Shown piece by piece: positions 35,460 to 43,451 of a stretch of 64,000 bases of DNA. The notes under the pieces are model-generated. The model made no database searches. It was not told the DNA's origin and was given only the letters and a program-made list of their open reading frames with translations. Source of the stretch: an uncultured Candidatus Saccharibacteria bacterium (GTDB taxonomy: Bacteria > Patescibacteriota > Saccharimonadia > Saccharimonadales > JAGQNJ01); contig CAZPAW010000003.1 of the NCBI GenBank assembly GCA_964584895.1, forward strand, positions 35,009 to 99,008, read 5' to 3'. The position numbers and the translations under genes were made by a program. Position 1 is the first letter of the stretch; each line of letters begins with the position of its first letter.

Positions 35460-35825
35460 CTATCTTGTTTTACGCGAACGTAATTTTGCTAATATTTTGA
35501 GCGAAACCTTATGGTTGGTATGCTTATCCTTGTATTTTTTTAACTGATTTTTTAATTTTGTTTCAACGATATCAATTGCTGCATACATATTTATAGTAGA
35601 TTCCTTCGTGTTAATACTTTCTTTAGGTAACACGAGCATAACTTCACAAGTACATTCTTTTTTAGTTTTTATTACACGTTCTTTTAGATAGACTTTTACA
35701 TGAACTGAATCACGAGCATACCTAGGAATATACTTGTCTAGTTTTCCGATCTTTTTTTCAGCGTATTTGCGTAAATTCGCATCAATTTTTAAGTTTACAC
35801 CTTGTATTTCCATTTTGTTAATCAT
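35460..35825 (-). CDS. hpf: Ribosome hibernation promoting factor / RaiA family (short form)
   Basis: MEIQGVNLKIDANLRKYAEKKIGKLDKY is typical of HPF. TAATG overlap with serS; ATG 35813 is an alternative start. Confidence 0.8.
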   Translation of the reverse strand: MINKMEIQGVNLKIDANLRKYAEKKIGKLDKYIPRYARDSVHVKVYLKERVIKTKKECTCEVMLVLPKESINTKESTINMYAAIDIVETKLKNQLKKYKDKHTNHKVSLKILAKLRSRKTR

Positions 35826-37126
35826 TATATTTTCTCCCTTCCTTGCATATATGGTCTCAAAATTTTTGGAATTATCACATCTCCATCTTTTGTTTGATTA
35901 TTCTCTATAATCGCTATTAATGGACGCTCTGAAAATGCTGTTGCATCATTGTTGTGAACAAGCTGAATCTCTCCGTTGGCTCTTTTTACCCTAGTTTTTG
36001 TACGCCTAGCCTGATAATCGGTCATATAATCTGCGGTATGTGTCTCGCGATACTGTTTTTGCCCAGGTAGCCACGTATCAATATCAGTGCCCGAGGCATT
36101 CGGGCCACCGATATCAGCAGTACATTTTGTTACTACATTATATGGCAAGTCGAGACTTTGCATCAGGTATTCTTGAACAGCAATCATAAATCTATACTCT
36201 TCTTTACCGTCTTCTGGCAAATTAAAGCTCTCCATTTCTAATTTATTAAATTGATGGAGCCTCAACATGCCCTCCATATCTTTTCCATATGTTCCTGCTT
36301 CTTTTCGAAACGCCGTAGTGTATCCAAGTAATCTAATTGGAAATTGTTTTTCTTCTAATATCTCGCCCATGTACATAGGGGCAAGGACATGTTCGGCGCT
36401 GGCGTTAAGCCATAACTCCTCATCAGCTATTTGATATGTTTGCTCCTCTTTATTCAGCCTGCCAGTTGCTTCAAATACCTCTGTTGTAGCCATAGCTGGC
36501 GGCAAAACAAAACAAAATGGCTTATCGGCTACTTTAAGATTATTCTCATCGATAATTTTTTTAATAATTTTATGGTCAGTCAACTGCTCTATAGCAAACT
36601 GCCACAAAGCAAACTCCATTTGAGCAAGATCGCCTTTAATGTATAAAAATCTACTGCCCGCCACCTTAACAGCGCGCTCTTTGTCTATCCAACCTTTTTT
36701 TTGAGCGATCTCCCAATGATTTTTTACCGGAAAATCGAATTGCGGTTTATCACCAACTTTTTTTGATACTACATTGTCAGCTTCACTTTTACCAACCGGA
36801 ACATCTTTTAAAGGTATATTTGGGATCAATTTTAATTTTGATTGTAACTCTTGTTTAAGTTTTTCTAATTCGTCTTCTAGTGGAATCAATTCTTTCTTTA
36901 TTTCAATTCCTGCTTTTATTTGTGCTTCGCTCGGTTTACTTCCCTTGGCAGATTCTGCAATTATTCTACGCTTTGACCGAAGTTCATCAATTATTGGCGC
37001 AAGATGTCTTCTCTTGGCATCAATAGCATTAACTTCATCGACAATTTTCGAAACATCATAACCCTTTAATTTGCTCTTCTCTTTTACGTAATCTGGTTTT
37101 TCATTTATTATTTTAATATCTAACAT
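35825..37126 (-). CDS. serS: Serine--tRNA ligase
   Basis: N-terminal coiled-coil arm and class II core (TTAFRKEAGTYGKDMEGMLRLHQFNKLE). Confidence 0.95.
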   Translation of the reverse strand: MLDIKIINEKPDYVKEKSKLKGYDVSKIVDEVNAIDAKRRHLAPIIDELRSKRRIIAESAKGSKPSEAQIKAGIEIKKELIPLEDELEKLKQELQSKLKLIPNIPLKDVPVGKSEADNVVSKKVGDKPQFDFPVKNHWEIAQKKGWIDKERAVKVAGSRFLYIKGDLAQMEFALWQFAIEQLTDHKIIKKIIDENNLKVADKPFCFVLPPAMATTEVFEATGRLNKEEQTYQIADEELWLNASAEHVLAPMYMGEILEEKQFPIRLLGYTTAFRKEAGTYGKDMEGMLRLHQFNKLEMESFNLPEDGKEEYRFMIAVQEYLMQSLDLPYNVVTKCTADIGGPNASGTDIDTWLPGQKQYRETHTADYMTDYQARRTKTRVKRANGEIQLVHNNDATAFSERPLIAIIENNQTKDGDVIIPKILRPYMQGREKI

Positions 37127-37920
37127 TATTTGATCCTCTTTTTATTTGATTCATGCAGATGATCCATCGTTAATTGTGTACGTTTTTTTGCGTACTCACA
37201 AAAATCACAATCTCCACCCATAGCTGCCTTTCCTACGGCCGGCATATCACCTTCTAAACATTTTTTCATATTAATTAATGTTTTGCCAACCCAGCTATCA
37301 TCGCCTTCATAAGGTATTACCTTAGTTCTAAACTCTACCCTATTATTGAACCCATCCATATCAAGCCTACCATTTGCATATACAAAATATCCAATATTAC
37401 TAACTTTAAAATTGTTTTGTCTCAGCAGCCATTGATATACTTCCATTTGCCTCTTGTATGCTATTTGCCAATCAGAATTAATGTCGACTTCTGACTGTTT
37501 TGCCGTTGCTTTATAATCAACTACTATCAACTCATCATTGTCGTTAACCCATATATCATCAACTGCACCAGTTACAAACAGATTTGACGCTTCGTCAAGG
37601 CATTGAATACCTACAAAATTTTCGCGCCATTTATTTAAATCCTTATGAGCAAACGGTACCGCCGAGACTTCGTATTCTATCATTATAGGATGGGGCTGTT
37701 TTTTACTACGAAACTCATCGAATTCTTTTTTTAACAGTTCATCGATTGCACTGTTTATTCTAAATGGAGGACCGTTAGGACGCCTGAGCTTTAACCTAGC
37801 ATCCAGCCAAAAACAGCGTGGACACTGCATGAACAACTCTATCTTACTACGACTTACTTTATACGCCTCTTTTTGACCAGGTTTATAGGTCTGGCCTCTA
37901 CCGGTATAGCTATTCGTCAT
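37126..37920 (-). CDS. PD-(D/E)XK nuclease family protein, Cas4/AddB-like, with a 4-Cys cluster
   Basis: VVDYKAT (D/ExK) and QMEVYQWLL (QxxxY). Cysteines lie at CPRCFW (N-terminal) and at KKC...GGDCDFCEY (C-terminal). TAATG overlap with serS. Confidence 0.7.
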   Translation of the reverse strand: MTNSYTGRGQTYKPGQKEAYKVSRSKIELFMQCPRCFWLDARLKLRRPNGPPFRINSAIDELLKKEFDEFRSKKQPHPIMIEYEVSAVPFAHKDLNKWRENFVGIQCLDEASNLFVTGAVDDIWVNDNDELIVVDYKATAKQSEVDINSDWQIAYKRQMEVYQWLLRQNNFKVSNIGYFVYANGRLDMDGFNNRVEFRTKVIPYEGDDSWVGKTLINMKKCLEGDMPAVGKAAMGGDCDFCEYAKKRTQLTMDHLHESNKKRIK

Positions 37921-37955: not shown

Positions 37956-38575
37956 CTATGTATTTTGTACAAATTCAAGGATATCTGCTGGTTTTTTTGC
38001 TATGTAATCAGGCTGATTCGCACTAAGTATATCTTGACCATTAAAGCCCCAAGTGACTGATATAACTGGCAATCCTACTTTTTTGGATGCTTTAATATCA
38101 CGCACTTCGTCACCAATATAAATACATGAATTTTTATCAATCTTATATTTTTTGATAGTAGTTTTTATAGCGATAGTTTTACCAAACACTCCAACACCTC
38201 CAACTATGCTCTCAAAATACTGGTTCAAATCATTTTTTATTAAAATTGTATTTATATTCTCTACGCTATTGCTACTGACAATATATAGGCAGTAACCACT
38301 ATCGTAGAGTTTTTAATGACATCATCTAAACCATGAAAAACATTAATCTTGCTAATATTCTGTTTTATGTATGATCTGGCCAATACTACATATTTGGGAA
38401 TCCGATGATAAGGAACGTTAAGCTCAGAAATTAATTGCCTGACTGTCATGTTTTTGTATTTGTTGATTTTTTGATCAGTCAGCCCTAAATCACCAAGAAC
38501 ACTTTCGGCACATTCTATAGCAACTGGGAGCGTATCGGCAATAGTACCGTCAAAATCAAAAATCACACTCTTCAT
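37956..38575 (-). pseudogene. HAD-superfamily phosphatase (phosphoglycolate-phosphatase-like) disrupted by a 1-nt frameshift
   Basis: The N-terminal ORF has the DxDGT motif (IFDFDGTIADT). The C-terminal ORF has IYIGDEVRDIKASKKVGLPVISVTWG. Adding one A to the A5 run (T5 at 38310-38314 on +) restores ...VIKKLYDSGYCLYIVSSNSVENINTILIKNDLNQYFESIVGG... Confidence 0.7.
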
Positions 38576-38611: not shown

Positions 38612-39427
38612 CTAGGGACGTAATGCACCAAAAAACACTTGCCATGCAAGCAACGATTTTGCGACAAGGCTCAAAAGCATATATACGCGTTCCCCGTACA
38701 AATAATCAGCCCATTTACCAACTTTTTTATATTGAAGATACATATTGATGGCAAAGCAATTGAAAAAGACAAACAAACTAACGTATATCCAATAGACGAA
38801 AGACGGAATTTGCCCACTACCATATATATTCGAGCCCCAGAAGTATATTCCGATCACTACCCAAGGTAATATACCTGCGATGCAACCGACAATAAAACTA
38901 ACCCAAGAAACCTGTTTGGACTTTTTGTTATGTATTTCCATGACAAGTCCACATAGATTCATTACTGCGGTCAGACCAAATATCATTACTAAACTCGATA
39001 AATCATATACTCCGCTTAGTAATGCTATAGAAATCATCATGATGCTGGCGCTCAAAGAGTATTCTATCCATCGAGCCTTATTAATATTATTTTGTAGGTT
39101 TTCCTCATACCAAGATCGTAGATAGGTAGCCAACAACCCATGAGCTACAGCAGATAAAAAGAAGAATAATGCAACTAGATAGGCTAAGTTTACGTTAGCC
39201 ACATTACTTATTGCTGGCACTAGATTTGGAGCACTATTGCCACTCGAACTTAACGTATCCAGAGTCAGATAGTTTGTATTAATAGGAAAAGTTGTATCTT
39301 TAGCCAACAAAACAACAGCAAACCCCTGTAAGGCATGTAGCACCGACATTACAACGTTCCATCTATGAAGCCTTTCGAATTCTTTTTTATTTGAATTAGA
39401 TTTAATCTTTTTTATTACTTTTTTCAT
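38612..39427 (-). CDS. Heliorhodopsin (7-TM retinal protein family)
   Basis: 271 aa, 7 predicted TM helices. The blocks RWIEYSLSASIMM, FIVGCIAGILPW, FNCFAINMYLQYKKVGKW and GERVYMLLSLVAKSLLAWQVF match my recollection of heliorhodopsin 48C12 (RWVEYSLSSS..., GCIAGIVPW, YLQYKGKGKW, GERAYIVLSLVAKSALAWQIF). These include the TM3 Glu counterion and the TM7 Schiff-base Lys. Confidence 0.8.
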   Translation of the reverse strand: MKKVIKKIKSNSNKKEFERLHRWNVVMSVLHALQGFAVVLLAKDTTFPINTNYLTLDTLSSSGNSAPNLVPAISNVANVNLAYLVALFFFLSAVAHGLLATYLRSWYEENLQNNINKARWIEYSLSASIMMISIALLSGVYDLSSLVMIFGLTAVMNLCGLVMEIHNKKSKQVSWVSFIVGCIAGILPWVVIGIYFWGSNIYGSGQIPSFVYWIYVSLFVFFNCFAINMYLQYKKVGKWADYLYGERVYMLLSLVAKSLLAWQVFFGALRP

Positions 39428-39659
39428 AAACCTACTTTATCATATAAAAAAATTAAAAAATATCTCGTAATTATCTGCTAGTAATGTTTTTCTCAAAGCC
39501 CTTTACATTTGTTATTGTCGAAACAACTACATCCTCAATTCTTATTCCTTGTTCGAATTTTCTCATACTACCGATAAGCTTTCAAAGCCTGCTAGTGAAC
39601 TAGAATTTTGCGGCATAACATTTCCGATCTCCCAGCCCCATATTTATACCCATAGTATA

Positions 39660-41168
39660 TTAAAGCTTAATGTCAGGGTAAATGCTTTTTGTCGTCTGAT
39701 CTATCTCAGAACGTAACTGAGGAAAAGGTACTCCTTCTCGAGCTGATACGCCCTCAAAAATCCAAAAAACTCGTTCTGCATAACCTAAGCCACAAGCTGG
39801 CGGCATACCGTATTCAAGCATTTCTATATAATCAATATCCAACATCTGTGCTTCATCGTCACCTTCGTCGCGCATCTTTTGTTGTTCAACAAACCTGTGA
39901 AGTTGATCGACAGGATCATTTAGCTCGCTCCATCCATTACTAAGTTCACTGCCAGCAATAACGGCTTGAAAACGCTGAACAAATCGCGGATCTTTATCAT
40001 CAGTTTTTGAAAGCGGCGAAATAAAAGTAGGTGTATCAATTAACCAAACAGGTCCTGCAATAGTTGCCCTAACTTTTTTCCATAATTTATCTATCCCACG
40101 TGCTTTATTTTCAGTTTTTTCTACCTTAATATTATGTTTTTTTAATTCTTTTTTTATCTCATCGATTGTGCAATCAAAAACATCTATATCGTAATGTTCT
40201 TTTATCACATCAGCATACTTCCATCGCTCCCATTTAGCCCCCATATCGACCTTCATCCCTCGTACTTCAAATTCTAAAGTTCCAAAAGTATCGTGTAGTA
40301 CTTTTTTGAACATCTCTTCCATGAGTTGCATCCCATCTTCCCAATCAGCGTAAGCCCAATACCATTCCATAGCAATATGTTCTGGTAAATGCTCTTCACT
40401 GTAATTCTCGTTACGAAAGCGTGGCCCAATATCAAACACTTTTTCATAACCGCCTCCGATTAATCTCTTAAGTGGTAATTCATGACTAATCCTAAGATAG
40501 TAATCCTGATCTAAGGCATTCATATGCGTAATAAATGGCGTTGCATCAGCTCCGCCAGTAGTGTGCTCCAAAACTGGCACATTGATTTCAATAAAGCCTT
40601 TTTCTAACAGAAATTGTCTCGTTGATTGCCAGAACTTGCTACGCCGAATAAATCTTTGATATACATCACTATTAACGTTTGTGTCGATATACCGACGCCT
40701 TAACCTTTCTTCTTTATTGGTAAACCCGTCTTCTTTGGTTGGCATAGGACGAATAGATTTCGATAGCAGTCTCAATTTTTCTACAGCAATCGATATTTCG
40801 CCTGTTTTTGTTTTAATCACCTTCCCGCTACCCTCTACAAAATCTCCTGGATCGAGTAATTTAATATCAGAAAAATTTAATTCGCTATTAGCATAATCTA
40901 CTTTTTTTGCGGATTCTGCTTTATTAAATAACTGTATCTCTCCTGAAGAGTCTTTTATGACAACGAATGCCAATTTTCCAATATCTCTTATACGAGTAAT
41001 CCGACCAACGACTGATACTGTCTTGTTCTCAAGTACAGAAAATTTATCGACTATTTCAGAGTTAGTATGTGATCTTGTAGATTTTGCTGGGTATGGATTG
41101 ACGCCCAGTTTTTTCAAATCTTCAATTTTGCGTAACCTCTCGGCCCTAAGTTCATTCAAGTTTGCCAT
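39660..41168 (-). CDS. lysS: Lysine--tRNA ligase (class II)
   Basis: N-terminal OB anticodon-binding domain and class II motifs (FRNENYSEEHLPEHIAMEWY, GLGYAERV). Confidence 0.95.
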   Translation of the reverse strand: MANLNELRAERLRKIEDLKKLGVNPYPAKSTRSHTNSEIVDKFSVLENKTVSVVGRITRIRDIGKLAFVVIKDSSGEIQLFNKAESAKKVDYANSELNFSDIKLLDPGDFVEGSGKVIKTKTGEISIAVEKLRLLSKSIRPMPTKEDGFTNKEERLRRRYIDTNVNSDVYQRFIRRSKFWQSTRQFLLEKGFIEINVPVLEHTTGGADATPFITHMNALDQDYYLRISHELPLKRLIGGGYEKVFDIGPRFRNENYSEEHLPEHIAMEWYWAYADWEDGMQLMEEMFKKVLHDTFGTLEFEVRGMKVDMGAKWERWKYADVIKEHYDIDVFDCTIDEIKKELKKHNIKVEKTENKARGIDKLWKKVRATIAGPVWLIDTPTFISPLSKTDDKDPRFVQRFQAVIAGSELSNGWSELNDPVDQLHRFVEQQKMRDEGDDEAQMLDIDYIEMLEYGMPPACGLGYAERVFWIFEGVSAREGVPFPQLRSEIDQTTKSIYPDIKL

Positions 41169-41747: not shown

Positions 41748-43451
41748 CTAGCTTTGTCTGGCTAGTTTTTTAAGCAATTCTTCTTTTGATAGCATCTCAG
41801 TATCTTTTGCTGTCCTTTTTTTATACTCAAATTTGTTGGCTTCAACAGTTTTAGCGCTAACAACCACACGATGTGGTATACCAATCAGATCCGCATCGGC
41901 AAATTTCTCGCCAGGCCGCACATCACGATCATCGTACAACACCTCCACGCCCGTTTCTTGAAGCTCTCTGTATAGTCTTTGAGCTGCCTCAGATATTCTT
42001 GTATCGCTTCCAAGTTGAGCTACATATACTTGAAATGGTGCAACATTTTCTGGCCAAATAATACCGCGTTCATCGCTATAAATCTCAGCGATTGCCGCCA
42101 TAGTTCGACCTATGCCGATACCATAACATCCCATGTAATATTTTTGTCGTTTTCCAGCCTCATCTGTATACTCAGCACCTTTCATTAGATTCGTGTAGTG
42201 ATAACCTAATTGGAATATATTCCCTACTTCTATTCCCCGTCTTTCAATCAGTTTTTGTCCCGATGGAGCAATATATCCGGCTTTCGCCAACTTAATATCA
42301 TAGAATTTCTTTGGCTCTACCAAATCTCTTCCAAAATTTACGTTTATCGAGTGATAATCTGTCCGATTTGCACCCATTTCAAAGTTTCGTCTACCTCTCA
42401 TAGACTCATCCATAACCACAATTACTTCTTTCGGAAGATTTAGTAAGCCCGCATAACCAACTTCTGCGCCAGTAACACGTTTAACCGTTTCAGCCGATGC
42501 TAACGATAATGGTGAACCTTTAACTATCGCCTGCAATTTTGTCTCATTAATGTCAAAATCTCCCCGCACCGCTGCAGCGATAACTCTTCCCTGTTCGTCT
42601 TCAAAAATAATTGTTTTAGTTGTGAGCTCAGCAGGAATTTTTAAAAACTTAGCTAGCTCGTCGACGCCAATAATGCCCTTGCCTTCAACTTCTTCCATTG
42701 GCTTCTCAGATTCATCTTCATTTTCATAACGTTCGTACAAAAATGTTGCTACATCTTCGTGAGCGGCGTAACTTCCATCTTCTGTTGTAAAGTACGTACT
42801 TTCTCCAACCTTAGTCTCAGCCACAAATTCATGGCAGTATTCACCGCCAATATAACCGTTGTCTGCCGCCACGACATCTGTTTTTAGACCTAGTTCTTCG
42901 AAGATCACCGTATATACATCCCACATCTGCTGATAAATATCTTTAAACTGCGCTTCGGTGCTAAAACTATATGCATCTTTCATGATGAACTCTCGAACGC
43001 GCAGAAGTCCTCCCCGAGCGCGCATTTCATCGCGGAATTTCATCGAAAATTGGTACAAATTAAATGGAAGATCTTTGTAGCTGATATTAAACTTGCGTAC
43101 CAAATCAACGACCATTTCCTCAGCTGTACCCCCCAGGACAAAGTCGGCATCTCGTCGATCTTTAATGCCCATCAGTTCAAAACCAGCAGAGGTTGTGCGG
43201 TTCGTTTCTTTCCAGAGTTCAAGTGGATGTAGCACTGGCGTTACAATTTCCTGAGCGTTTGCTTGATTCATGTGTTTGCGCACAATATCAATAATCCGAT
43301 CATGTACCTTTAGGCCCAAAGGTAATAGGTAATATCGCCCAGCAGTTGATTCTCGAATAAAGCCAGCCTGCGTCAGCAAGCGATGTGAATCAATCTTATA
43401 ATCTAAACCTTCAGTTTTGGATGTCTTTCCAAATAATTGTGAGTATTTCAT
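41748..43451 (-). CDS. proS: Proline--tRNA ligase (bacterial type with INS editing domain)
   Basis: 567 aa, FRDEMRARGGLLRVREF (motif 2) and CYGIGIGR (motif 3). Confidence 0.95.
   Translation of the reverse strand: MKYSQLFGKTSKTEGLDYKIDSHRLLTQAGFIRESTAGRYYLLPLGLKVHDRIIDIVRKHMNQANAQEIVTPVLHPLELWKETNRTTSAGFELMGIKDRRDADFVLGGTAEEMVVDLVRKFNISYKDLPFNLYQFSMKFRDEMRARGGLLRVREFIMKDAYSFSTEAQFKDIYQQMWDVYTVIFEELGLKTDVVAADNGYIGGEYCHEFVAETKVGESTYFTTEDGSYAAHEDVATFLYERYENEDESEKPMEEVEGKGIIGVDELAKFLKIPAELTTKTIIFEDEQGRVIAAAVRGDFDINETKLQAIVKGSPLSLASAETVKRVTGAEVGYAGLLNLPKEVIVVMDESMRGRRNFEMGANRTDYHSINVNFGRDLVEPKKFYDIKLAKAGYIAPSGQKLIERRGIEVGNIFQLGYHYTNLMKGAEYTDEAGKRQKYYMGCYGIGIGRTMAAIAEIYSDERGIIWPENVAPFQVYVAQLGSDTRISEAAQRLYRELQETGVEVLYDDRDVRPGEKFADADLIGIPHRVVVSAKTVEANKFEYKKRTAKDTEMLSKEELLKKLARQS

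Follow-up and report, generated by a model that had tools for sequence, protein, structure and literature searches.

The heliorhodopsins (HeRs) of solved structure most closely related to the protein described here are TaHeR from the Thermoplasmatales archaeon SG8-52-1 (PDB 6IS6, 7U55) and 48C12 (PDB 6SU3, 6UH3). We analyzed a HeR gene on a stretch of 64,000 nucleotides from an uncultured Candidatus Saccharibacteria bacterium (assembly GCA_964584895.1, contig CAZPAW010000003.1, positions 35,009 to 99,008 of the forward strand). This whole stretch is called the window in the following, and coordinates are counted from its first letter. Taken as a whole, the best explanation is that the gene encodes a canonical, functional HeR of a Saccharibacteria bacterium, which belongs to the candidate phyla radiation (CPR/Patescibacteria); we put the probability of this reading at roughly 80%.

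By sequence (49% identity) as well as by fold, TaHeR is the best solved relative. Both proteins share the counterion glutamate, the Schiff-base lysine, a histidine pair, a glutamine (Q213 in TaHeR, Q232 in the window HeR) and the residues of the lateral fenestration. In contrast to its archaeal relative, from which it differs in 51% of the aligned residues, the window HeR has six more residues in its first extracellular loop, five more in the one that connects helices 5 and 6, and a Lys-rich N-terminal extension. With 48C12 the identity is 44%. Here E107, K241, S237, H23, H80, N101, R104, E149 and E230 are all matched, whereas Q213, S112 and N138 of 48C12 are replaced by Met, Ala and Thr, respectively.

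Heliorhodopsins are an already reported feature of the host group. A screen of 1326 CPR genomes yielded 115 rhodopsin sequences, of which 17 were predicted proton pumps and the rest inferred HeRs, 80 of them in Saccharimonadia, and the commonest motifs in transmembrane helix 7 (TM7) of CPR HeRs were SLVAK, SLIAK and SFVAK (Chiriac et al. 2022, PMC9166423). By host class, SLVAK motif and predicted inverted topology the window HeR belongs to this set, although its sequence was not individually described there. Saccharibacteria also possess type-1 rhodopsins, the SacRs, whose bearers lack blh and for which a retinal supply from host or neighbouring cells has been proposed as well (PMC9296517). 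Unlike the window HeR, SacRs are DTS-motif outward proton pumps with an extracellular N-terminus. The initial annotation had considered an exogenous chromophore in a CPR bacterium biologically notable; however, both Saccharimonadia HeRs and external retinal are already in print (PMC9166423, PMC9296517). The window HeR is thus an ordinary case, as both this type of gene and its occurrence in the host group had been described before. Any standard annotation pipeline can be expected to label it "heliorhodopsin HeR", and as a discovery it carries little weight. Its modest value lies in supplying a further well-supported case of a chromophore-dependent photoreceptor whose genome apparently is unable to make the chromophore.

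Family identity and conserved residues

The gene and the two codons central to its assignment are located as follows.

38612..39427, minus strand: HeR coding sequence including the stop codon, 271 amino acids, ATG start, seven transmembrane helices
38657..38659, minus strand: codon AAA of K257, predicted retinal Schiff-base lysine in the SLVAK motif of TM7, corresponding to K241 of 48C12 and K238 of TaHeR
39062..39064, minus strand: codon GAA of E122, predicted single counterion in the RWIEY motif of TM3, corresponding to E107 of 48C12 and E108 of TaHeR

It is virtually certain that this open reading frame (ORF) is a genuine heliorhodopsin. The Pfam family Heliorhodopsin (PF18761) matched over its full profile (1-242 of 242) with 319.8 bits against a cutoff of 26.7, and with E = 1.3e-95 this match lies far beyond chance. 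The NCBIfam equivalog NF038020, "heliorhodopsin HeR", scored 319.2 bits against a cutoff of 100. Sequence search of the PDB returned six entries at E < 0.05, all of them heliorhodopsins, with TaHeR 6IS6 on top (E = 9.5e-74) and 48C12 next (E ~4e-51). Other seven-helix families, type-1 chains included, gave no PDB sequence match even at E <= 10. A type-1 microbial rhodopsin was considered and rejected, as Bac_rhodopsin (PF01036) had no match at E <= 0.01, the TM7 motif is SLVAK and not DxxxK, the predicted topology is opposite and the fold similarity remained low (see below). Likewise, no better-fitting family outside the HeRs was found by Pfam, PDB sequence or fold comparison. A profile search of all fetched loci located exactly one HeR-family gene in the window.

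The initial annotation had proposed a HeR from four sequence blocks, and these were indeed found in the order it gave, RWIEYSLSASIMM at residue 119, FIVGCIAGILPW at 178, FNCFAINMYLQYKKVGKW at 222 and GERVYMLLSLVAKSLLAWQVF at 245. Its family assignment and its choice of the SLVAK lysine and of the TM3 glutamate agree with our results, and its interpretation withstood all the refuting checks that it had named, namely the HeR profile match, the alignment of the SLVAK lysine and the comparison to non-retinal seven-helix families. By contrast, its description of the blocks as near-identical to 48C12 did not hold, given the overall identities from HMMER alignments quoted above and the closer fold of TaHeR.

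For residue conservation and for an AlphaFold2 model we used an alignment of 40 sequences. Residues were mapped by the HMMER alignments, where TaHeR chain numbering was shifted by a constant offset of +6, verified at E108 and K238. K257 and E122 are invariant in the alignment. The same holds for S253 of the SxxxK motif (S237 in 48C12, S234 in TaHeR) and for the histidine pair of the internal proton-accepting group, H31 (H23 in both proteins) and H96 (H80 in 48C12, H82 in TaHeR). N116, R119, E164 and E246 are matched in 48C12, and Q232 takes the place of TaHeR Q213, with a Met at the position of the 48C12 glutamine of the same number. Altogether, H31, S92, H96, N116, R119, E122, E164, Q232, E246, S253 and K257 agree with 48C12, with TaHeR or with both, and are invariant or nearly so among 40 relatives.

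The model reached a predicted local distance difference test score of 91.5 and a predicted template modeling score (TM-score) of 0.87. It features seven helices and, in the first extracellular loop, a long beta-hairpin of residues 46-80 with strands 46-56 and 69-80. Foldseek aligned it to TaHeR (6is6) with TM-scores of 0.87/0.94 and a root-mean-square deviation of 1.9 Å and to 48C12 (6su3) with 0.85/0.90, whereas type-1 rhodopsins only gave TM-scores around 0.6 (<= 0.64) at E ~1e-3. Loops on the N-terminal side contain 17 Lys or Arg residues compared to one on the other side. From this charge distribution a cytoplasmic N-terminus is predicted, i.e., the inverted topology of HeRs, as the initial annotation had proposed to check.

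A terminator-like hairpin with a T-run behind it (38636-38652, minus strand) overlaps the conserved LLAWQVFFG motif in the final 40 nt of the HeR coding sequence. Such sites were no more numerous in the region than in shuffled sequences, and the hairpin may be coincidental.

Host, selection and retinal supply

When GTDB species representatives were scanned with the window HeR, 80 loci were obtained. The top ~60 came almost all from metagenome-assembled genomes (MAGs) of Candidatus Saccharibacteria/Saccharimonadales with 52-67% identity; Chloroflexi and Thermoplasmata came after them. Among GTDB species representatives the nearest one is 66% identical, and the nearest representative in a protein database clustered at 90% identity reaches 83%. 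Housekeeping neighbours of the gene are 60-91% identical to proteins of Saccharibacteria MAGs (FtsE 91%, lysyl-tRNA ligase (LysRS) 78%, SecA 75%). Because HeR relatives and housekeeping neighbours both match Saccharibacteria MAGs, the host is, as judged from sequence, a Saccharibacteria bacterium, in line with the CPR-type genome suspected initially. The window has a G+C content of 37.8% with nearly all genes on the minus strand, and no tRNA or Rfam elements were detected in it. A LytR-CpsA-Psr protein is present and outer-membrane biogenesis genes are absent in these 64 kb, which fits a monoderm host.

The identical HeR protein was found on contigs of three run series (SRR133556xx, SRR115248xx and ERR4450749), which match the window with 99.96-100% identity along more than 60 kb. 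As a side observation, this near-identity, spanning window positions 6029-57465, suggests a nearly clonal Saccharibacteria population over several sampled sites or studies. The run accessions turned up in none of the papers searched.

Between HeRs, nonsynonymous divergence (pN) was 0.11-0.19 and synonymous divergence (pS) 0.69-0.87. Synonymous sites were saturated in five of six pairs; hence pN and pS were used, plus a single dN/dS ratio of 0.11. These values indicate that the HeR is under strong purifying selection. Its divergence correlated with that of the adjacent nuclease and of the seryl-tRNA ligase (SerRS) with Spearman coefficients of 0.42 and 0.29, respectively, computed on pairs that are not independent. 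Together with the low pN at saturated synonymous sites, this correlation fits a vertically inherited gene that is kept by purifying selection and repeatedly lost.

Annotation covered about 60 genes of the window, either by Pfam hits precomputed on identical contigs or by direct scans. Among them were no members of BCD, RPE65, SQS_PSY/phytoene synthase, phytoene desaturase, lycopene cyclase or polyprenyl_synt, and the only prenyltransferase is of the UppS type (PF01255). The absence of blh and crt genes stated in the initial annotation is thus confirmed for the 64 kb, which also contain no type-1 rhodopsin. Otherwise the window encodes housekeeping functions, namely MurG, FtsW, PBP, MraW, MraZ, FtsEX, LytR-CpsA-Psr, UppS, RecO, ribosomal proteins, RF1/RF2, several tRNA ligases, CTP synthase, SecA, ParAB, signal peptidase and a class II ribonucleotide reductase, beside a few small proteins without family assignment.

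It is therefore likely, in our estimate, that the window HeR depends on retinal from other cells. Precedents exist: rhodopsin-bearing Saccharibacteria lack blh, retinal added to their type-1 rhodopsins is bound within 30 s, and Actinobacteria hosts have been proposed as retinal suppliers (Jaffe et al. 2022, PMC9296517). The same work draws an explicit comparison to TaHeR, a protein that admits retinal by a small opening and whose host likewise has no pathway for making it (PMC9296517). Exogenous retinal was reportedly already covered in the 2019 study of Shihoya.

A lineage without own retinal might also carry the gene as a relic, present mostly as apoprotein that either has lost any function in light or serves the membrane in a way that needs no chromophore. 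The missing retinal genes in the window would agree with this, and so would the empty slot in 18 of 41 related loci and the intact lysine-less homologues that occupy the slot at ten related metagenome loci, with a tandem lysine-less paralogue in another (L013), all described below. However, every retinal-pocket and photocycle residue of the window HeR is intact and invariant or nearly so across 40 relatives, few nonsynonymous differences stand against saturated synonymous sites, and the protein is identical in assemblies of all three run series. We hence regard a relic as very improbable, the least probable of the explanations considered here, and hold to a functional, retinal-dependent HeR.

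Proposed mode of action

From characterised homologues (TaHeR, 48C12, AbHeR, TfHeR and OcHeR), the following mode of action may be proposed for the window HeR. The apoprotein would take up all-trans retinal of other cells via the lateral fenestration. Light would isomerise the retinal, and the Schiff-base proton would pass to the internal acceptor group with no net ion transport. A long-lived photointermediate could then change the cytoplasmic face of the protein and thereby modulate a partner protein. HeRs have been described to regulate glutamine synthetase (AbHeR), photolyase (TfHeR) and the ABC transporter OmrDE (OcHeR) through charged cytoplasmic loops (PMC9529153, PMC9769723, PMC11109279). 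The window HeR belongs to the same family and has similarly positively charged cytoplasmic loops, which bind the partner in those three proteins; in contrast, their partner genes are neither adjacent to it nor found elsewhere in the window. Extrapolating from these relatives, we somewhat favour a sensory or regulatory mode for the window HeR.

Several points weigh against a canonical, retinal-dependent regulator. For retinal binding, photocycle and absent pumping, this reading extrapolates from homologues of only 44-49% identity, and the absence of retinal genes refers to 64 kb, a small part of a genome of about 0.8-1 Mb. None of ten published HeR neighbour classes is adjacent to the window HeR. 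According to a 2025 preprint, HeRs act as two-antenna light harvesters and not as sensors (bioRxiv 10.1101/2025.11.27.691015). Finally, the lysine-less homologues that occupy this slot in related contigs hint at a possible additional role of the scaffold for which no chromophore is needed.

The light-harvesting proposal bears on the fenestration. In 48C12, the residues of the lateral fenestration and carotenoid-binding site are F162, C166, G169, F206, N207 and A210 (bioRxiv 10.1101/2025.11.27.691015). All six are kept in the window HeR as F178, C182, G185, F222, N223 and A226 according to sequence mapping. An energy-harvesting or ion-transporting HeR, either a proton transporter like the viral V2HeR3 or a two-antenna harvester with external xanthophylls, would agree with this conservation. 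Such a function would moreover suit CPR bacteria, which have few routes to a proton gradient (PMC9296517), and proton transport has been described for V2HeR3 (PMC9448325). However, proton-transporting HeRs form a viral subfamily without the fenestration motif, whereas the window HeR is closest to TaHeR and 48C12. In the studies of Pushkarev (2018) and Shihoya (2019), these two proteins reportedly showed no ion transport. Furthermore, we know of no output mechanism for harvested energy in prokaryotic HeRs. Transport or harvesting therefore appears improbable to us, and a sensory or regulatory HeR remains the favoured mode.

The slot in the housekeeping backbone

In the window, the HeR gene is embedded in the following neighbourhood.

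35825..37126, minus strand: seryl-tRNA ligase, downstream backbone neighbour, Pfam Seryl_tRNA_N and tRNA-synt_2b on the identical gene of locus L001; its start overlaps the nuclease stop
37126..37920, minus strand: PD-(D/E)XK nuclease with Cas4-like Cys motifs, backbone neighbour, Pfam PDDEXK_1 with 55 bits; taken as context, a candidate partner at most
37956..38575, minus strand: HAD-IA phosphatase, phosphoglycolate-phosphatase-like, 36 bp downstream of the HeR, Pfam HAD_2 on both halves; taken as context, a candidate partner at most
39428..39659, minus strand: intergenic region of 232 bp upstream of the HeR, the msrA slot in many relatives, empty here
39660..41168, minus strand: lysyl-tRNA ligase (class II), upstream backbone neighbour, Pfam tRNA_anti-codon and tRNA-synt_2 on the identical gene of L001

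ORFs of the 80 HeR loci from GTDB representatives were clustered for recurring neighbours. In 37 loci a PD-(D/E)XK nuclease is among the first four genes downstream of the HeR, and in 26 (among L005-L084) MsrA (PF01625) is one of the three genes upstream, encoded on the same strand. SerRS is found nearby in 25 loci, RsmE in 21, and a RumA-type methyltransferase and DUF427 in 17 each. HAD follows within two genes downstream in 17 loci, directly at position +1 in 15 of these. Close relatives (P0005, P0007) show the order MsrA-HeR-HAD-PDDEXK-SerRS, and msrA precedes the HeR also at L091:1344-1835 and L092:4514-5002, whereas the window and its nearest relative P0001 have no msrA at the slot. In the papers searched, we found no pairing of heliorhodopsin with methionine sulfoxide reductase, and these recurring genes are not among the ten published HeR neighbour classes.

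The HeR could thus be a light-dependent regulator of a co-oriented neighbour, i.e., of HAD, the PD-(D/E)XK nuclease or, in relatives, MsrA, which would link light to the repair of photo-oxidative damage. This would agree with the short intergenic gaps on the same strand and with the recurrence of these three genes near HeRs. Known HeR partners often are operon neighbours (PMC11109279), and a role of HeRs in coping with oxidative stress has been suggested, after Bulzu et al. 2021 (PMC9166423; also PMC8612252). Nearly all window genes share one strand, however, and co-orientation is hence little informative.

A control scan of metagenomes was seeded with the PDDEXK nuclease and evaluated on the 41 loci whose upstream sequence spans at least 3 kb. 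A HeR-family gene was present in 23 of these and absent in 18, and the HeR-less loci keep the order MsrA-HAD-(RumA/RsmE)-PDDEXK-SerRS. MsrA occurred in 14/23 loci with a HeR and in 12/18 without (p = 0.75), HAD in 16/23 and 15/18, respectively (p = 0.47). Where all three genes were present, the HeR always lay between MsrA and HAD (10/10 loci). Within a conserved housekeeping backbone, one fixed slot is thus either occupied by the HeR gene or not. MsrA, HAD, PDDEXK, RsmE and RumA had at first appeared enriched near HeRs, yet as HeR-specific partner genes they were rejected, since the backbone is the same with or without the HeR and its neighbours therefore are not evidence for a partner. Gene order in this Saccharibacteria lineage is accordingly no guide to the HeR partner, which we consider a useful negative result.

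We also looked for decayed HeR pseudogenes in the 500-2000-bp gaps between MsrA and HAD. Only weak matches appeared, the best one (E = 4e-5, 104 amino acids) on the opposite strand of L128. In HeR-less loci these gaps are filled by other ORFs, with no convincing HeR remnant.

Further points speak against regulation of a neighbour. msrA is absent from the whole window, where a tblastn search with 29 MsrA sequences for remnants in the 232-bp gap or elsewhere gave nothing above noise (the top match, with E = 0.005, fell on an unrelated site). HAD, moreover, is inactivated in this strain while the HeR is unchanged. A one-base deletion in the A-run at 38309-38315 splits the HAD gene into ORFs of 104 and 90 amino acids; the run is A5 in the window and in L001 but A6 in L002 and L003, where the HAD protein is intact with 206 amino acids, as it is in all close relatives. 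NCBIfam matches of the two halves stayed under the equivalog cutoffs. An artefact of noisy assembly was rejected as the cause, because independent assemblies, which overlap the window by more than 60 kb, show no indel other than the one in this A-run; the frameshift thus looks real and probably is a strain-level variant that inactivates the gene. The frameshifted HAD gene 36 bp downstream had been noted initially, and its position and split stand, now refined to an A5/A6 strain polymorphism. Taken together, we find it improbable that the HeR serves as regulator of an adjacent gene, and a canonical HeR at the slot remains our preferred reading.

In related Saccharibacteria-type contigs, the profile search of the fetched loci also retrieved 11 intact, full-length HeR-family ORFs without the Schiff-base lysine (53-280 bits). 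The first ten listed here are each the sole HeR-family gene of their locus and lie in the same slot.

L132:3159-4082, lysine-less HeR ORF
L130:5160-5987, lysine-less HeR ORF
L123:3222-4043, lysine-less HeR ORF
L107:2938-3909, lysine-less HeR ORF
L097:4418-5362, lysine-less HeR ORF
L117:17-772, lysine-less HeR ORF
L164:505-1362, lysine-less HeR ORF
L106:3186-4025, lysine-less HeR ORF
L172:923-1780, lysine-less HeR ORF
L116:3562-4476, lysine-less HeR ORF
L013:10864-11784, lysine-less tandem paralogue directly after a canonical HeR

The lysine is replaced by A, L, Q, V, I, G or R, and most of these ORFs also lack the counterion glutamate and the histidine pair. In the closest pair, pN (0.30) was lower than pS (0.77). 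Published HeR surveys kept only sequences with the TM7 lysine, so such homologues would have been discarded. We may speculate that the Saccharibacteria HeR scaffold has a chromophore-free core function in the membrane, to which host-derived retinal, where available, adds an optional light switch. This would explain why canonical HeRs, empty slots and homologues lacking lysine and counterion alternate at one chromosomal position; nevertheless, we rate it as unlikely. The lysine-less homologues at the HeR slot leave our reading of the window HeR unaltered, but they are the most interesting observation of this analysis and may merit separate study.

The 232-bp region upstream of the HeR and the surrounding tRNA ligases are as described in the initial annotation, with the LysRS stop at 39660 and SerRS downstream. 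Promoter-like matches in the gap were below shuffled expectation, and structured RNA was not indicated there (fold z = 0.25; no Rfam match at the gathering threshold or at E <= 1). The gap resembles that of the closest relative, L090, whose HeR is 83% identical, only over the last ~35 nt.

Two stand-alone response-regulator receiver genes (PF00072; 23354-23731 and 16843-17274) lie 15-22 kb from the HeR, with no histidine kinase in the 64 kb. Two-component genes near HeRs have been reported in other phyla.

In the flanking tRNA ligases, comparison to L090 revealed that non-orthologous genes have been exchanged at matching syntenic positions. Where the window has the class II LysRS (PF00152, 39660-41168), L090 has a class I LysRS (PF01921, 4148-5680). 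Prolyl-tRNA ligase, in the same gene order, comprises 567 amino acids with an editing domain in the window (41748-43451) and 418 amino acids without it in the relative (L090:2328-3584).

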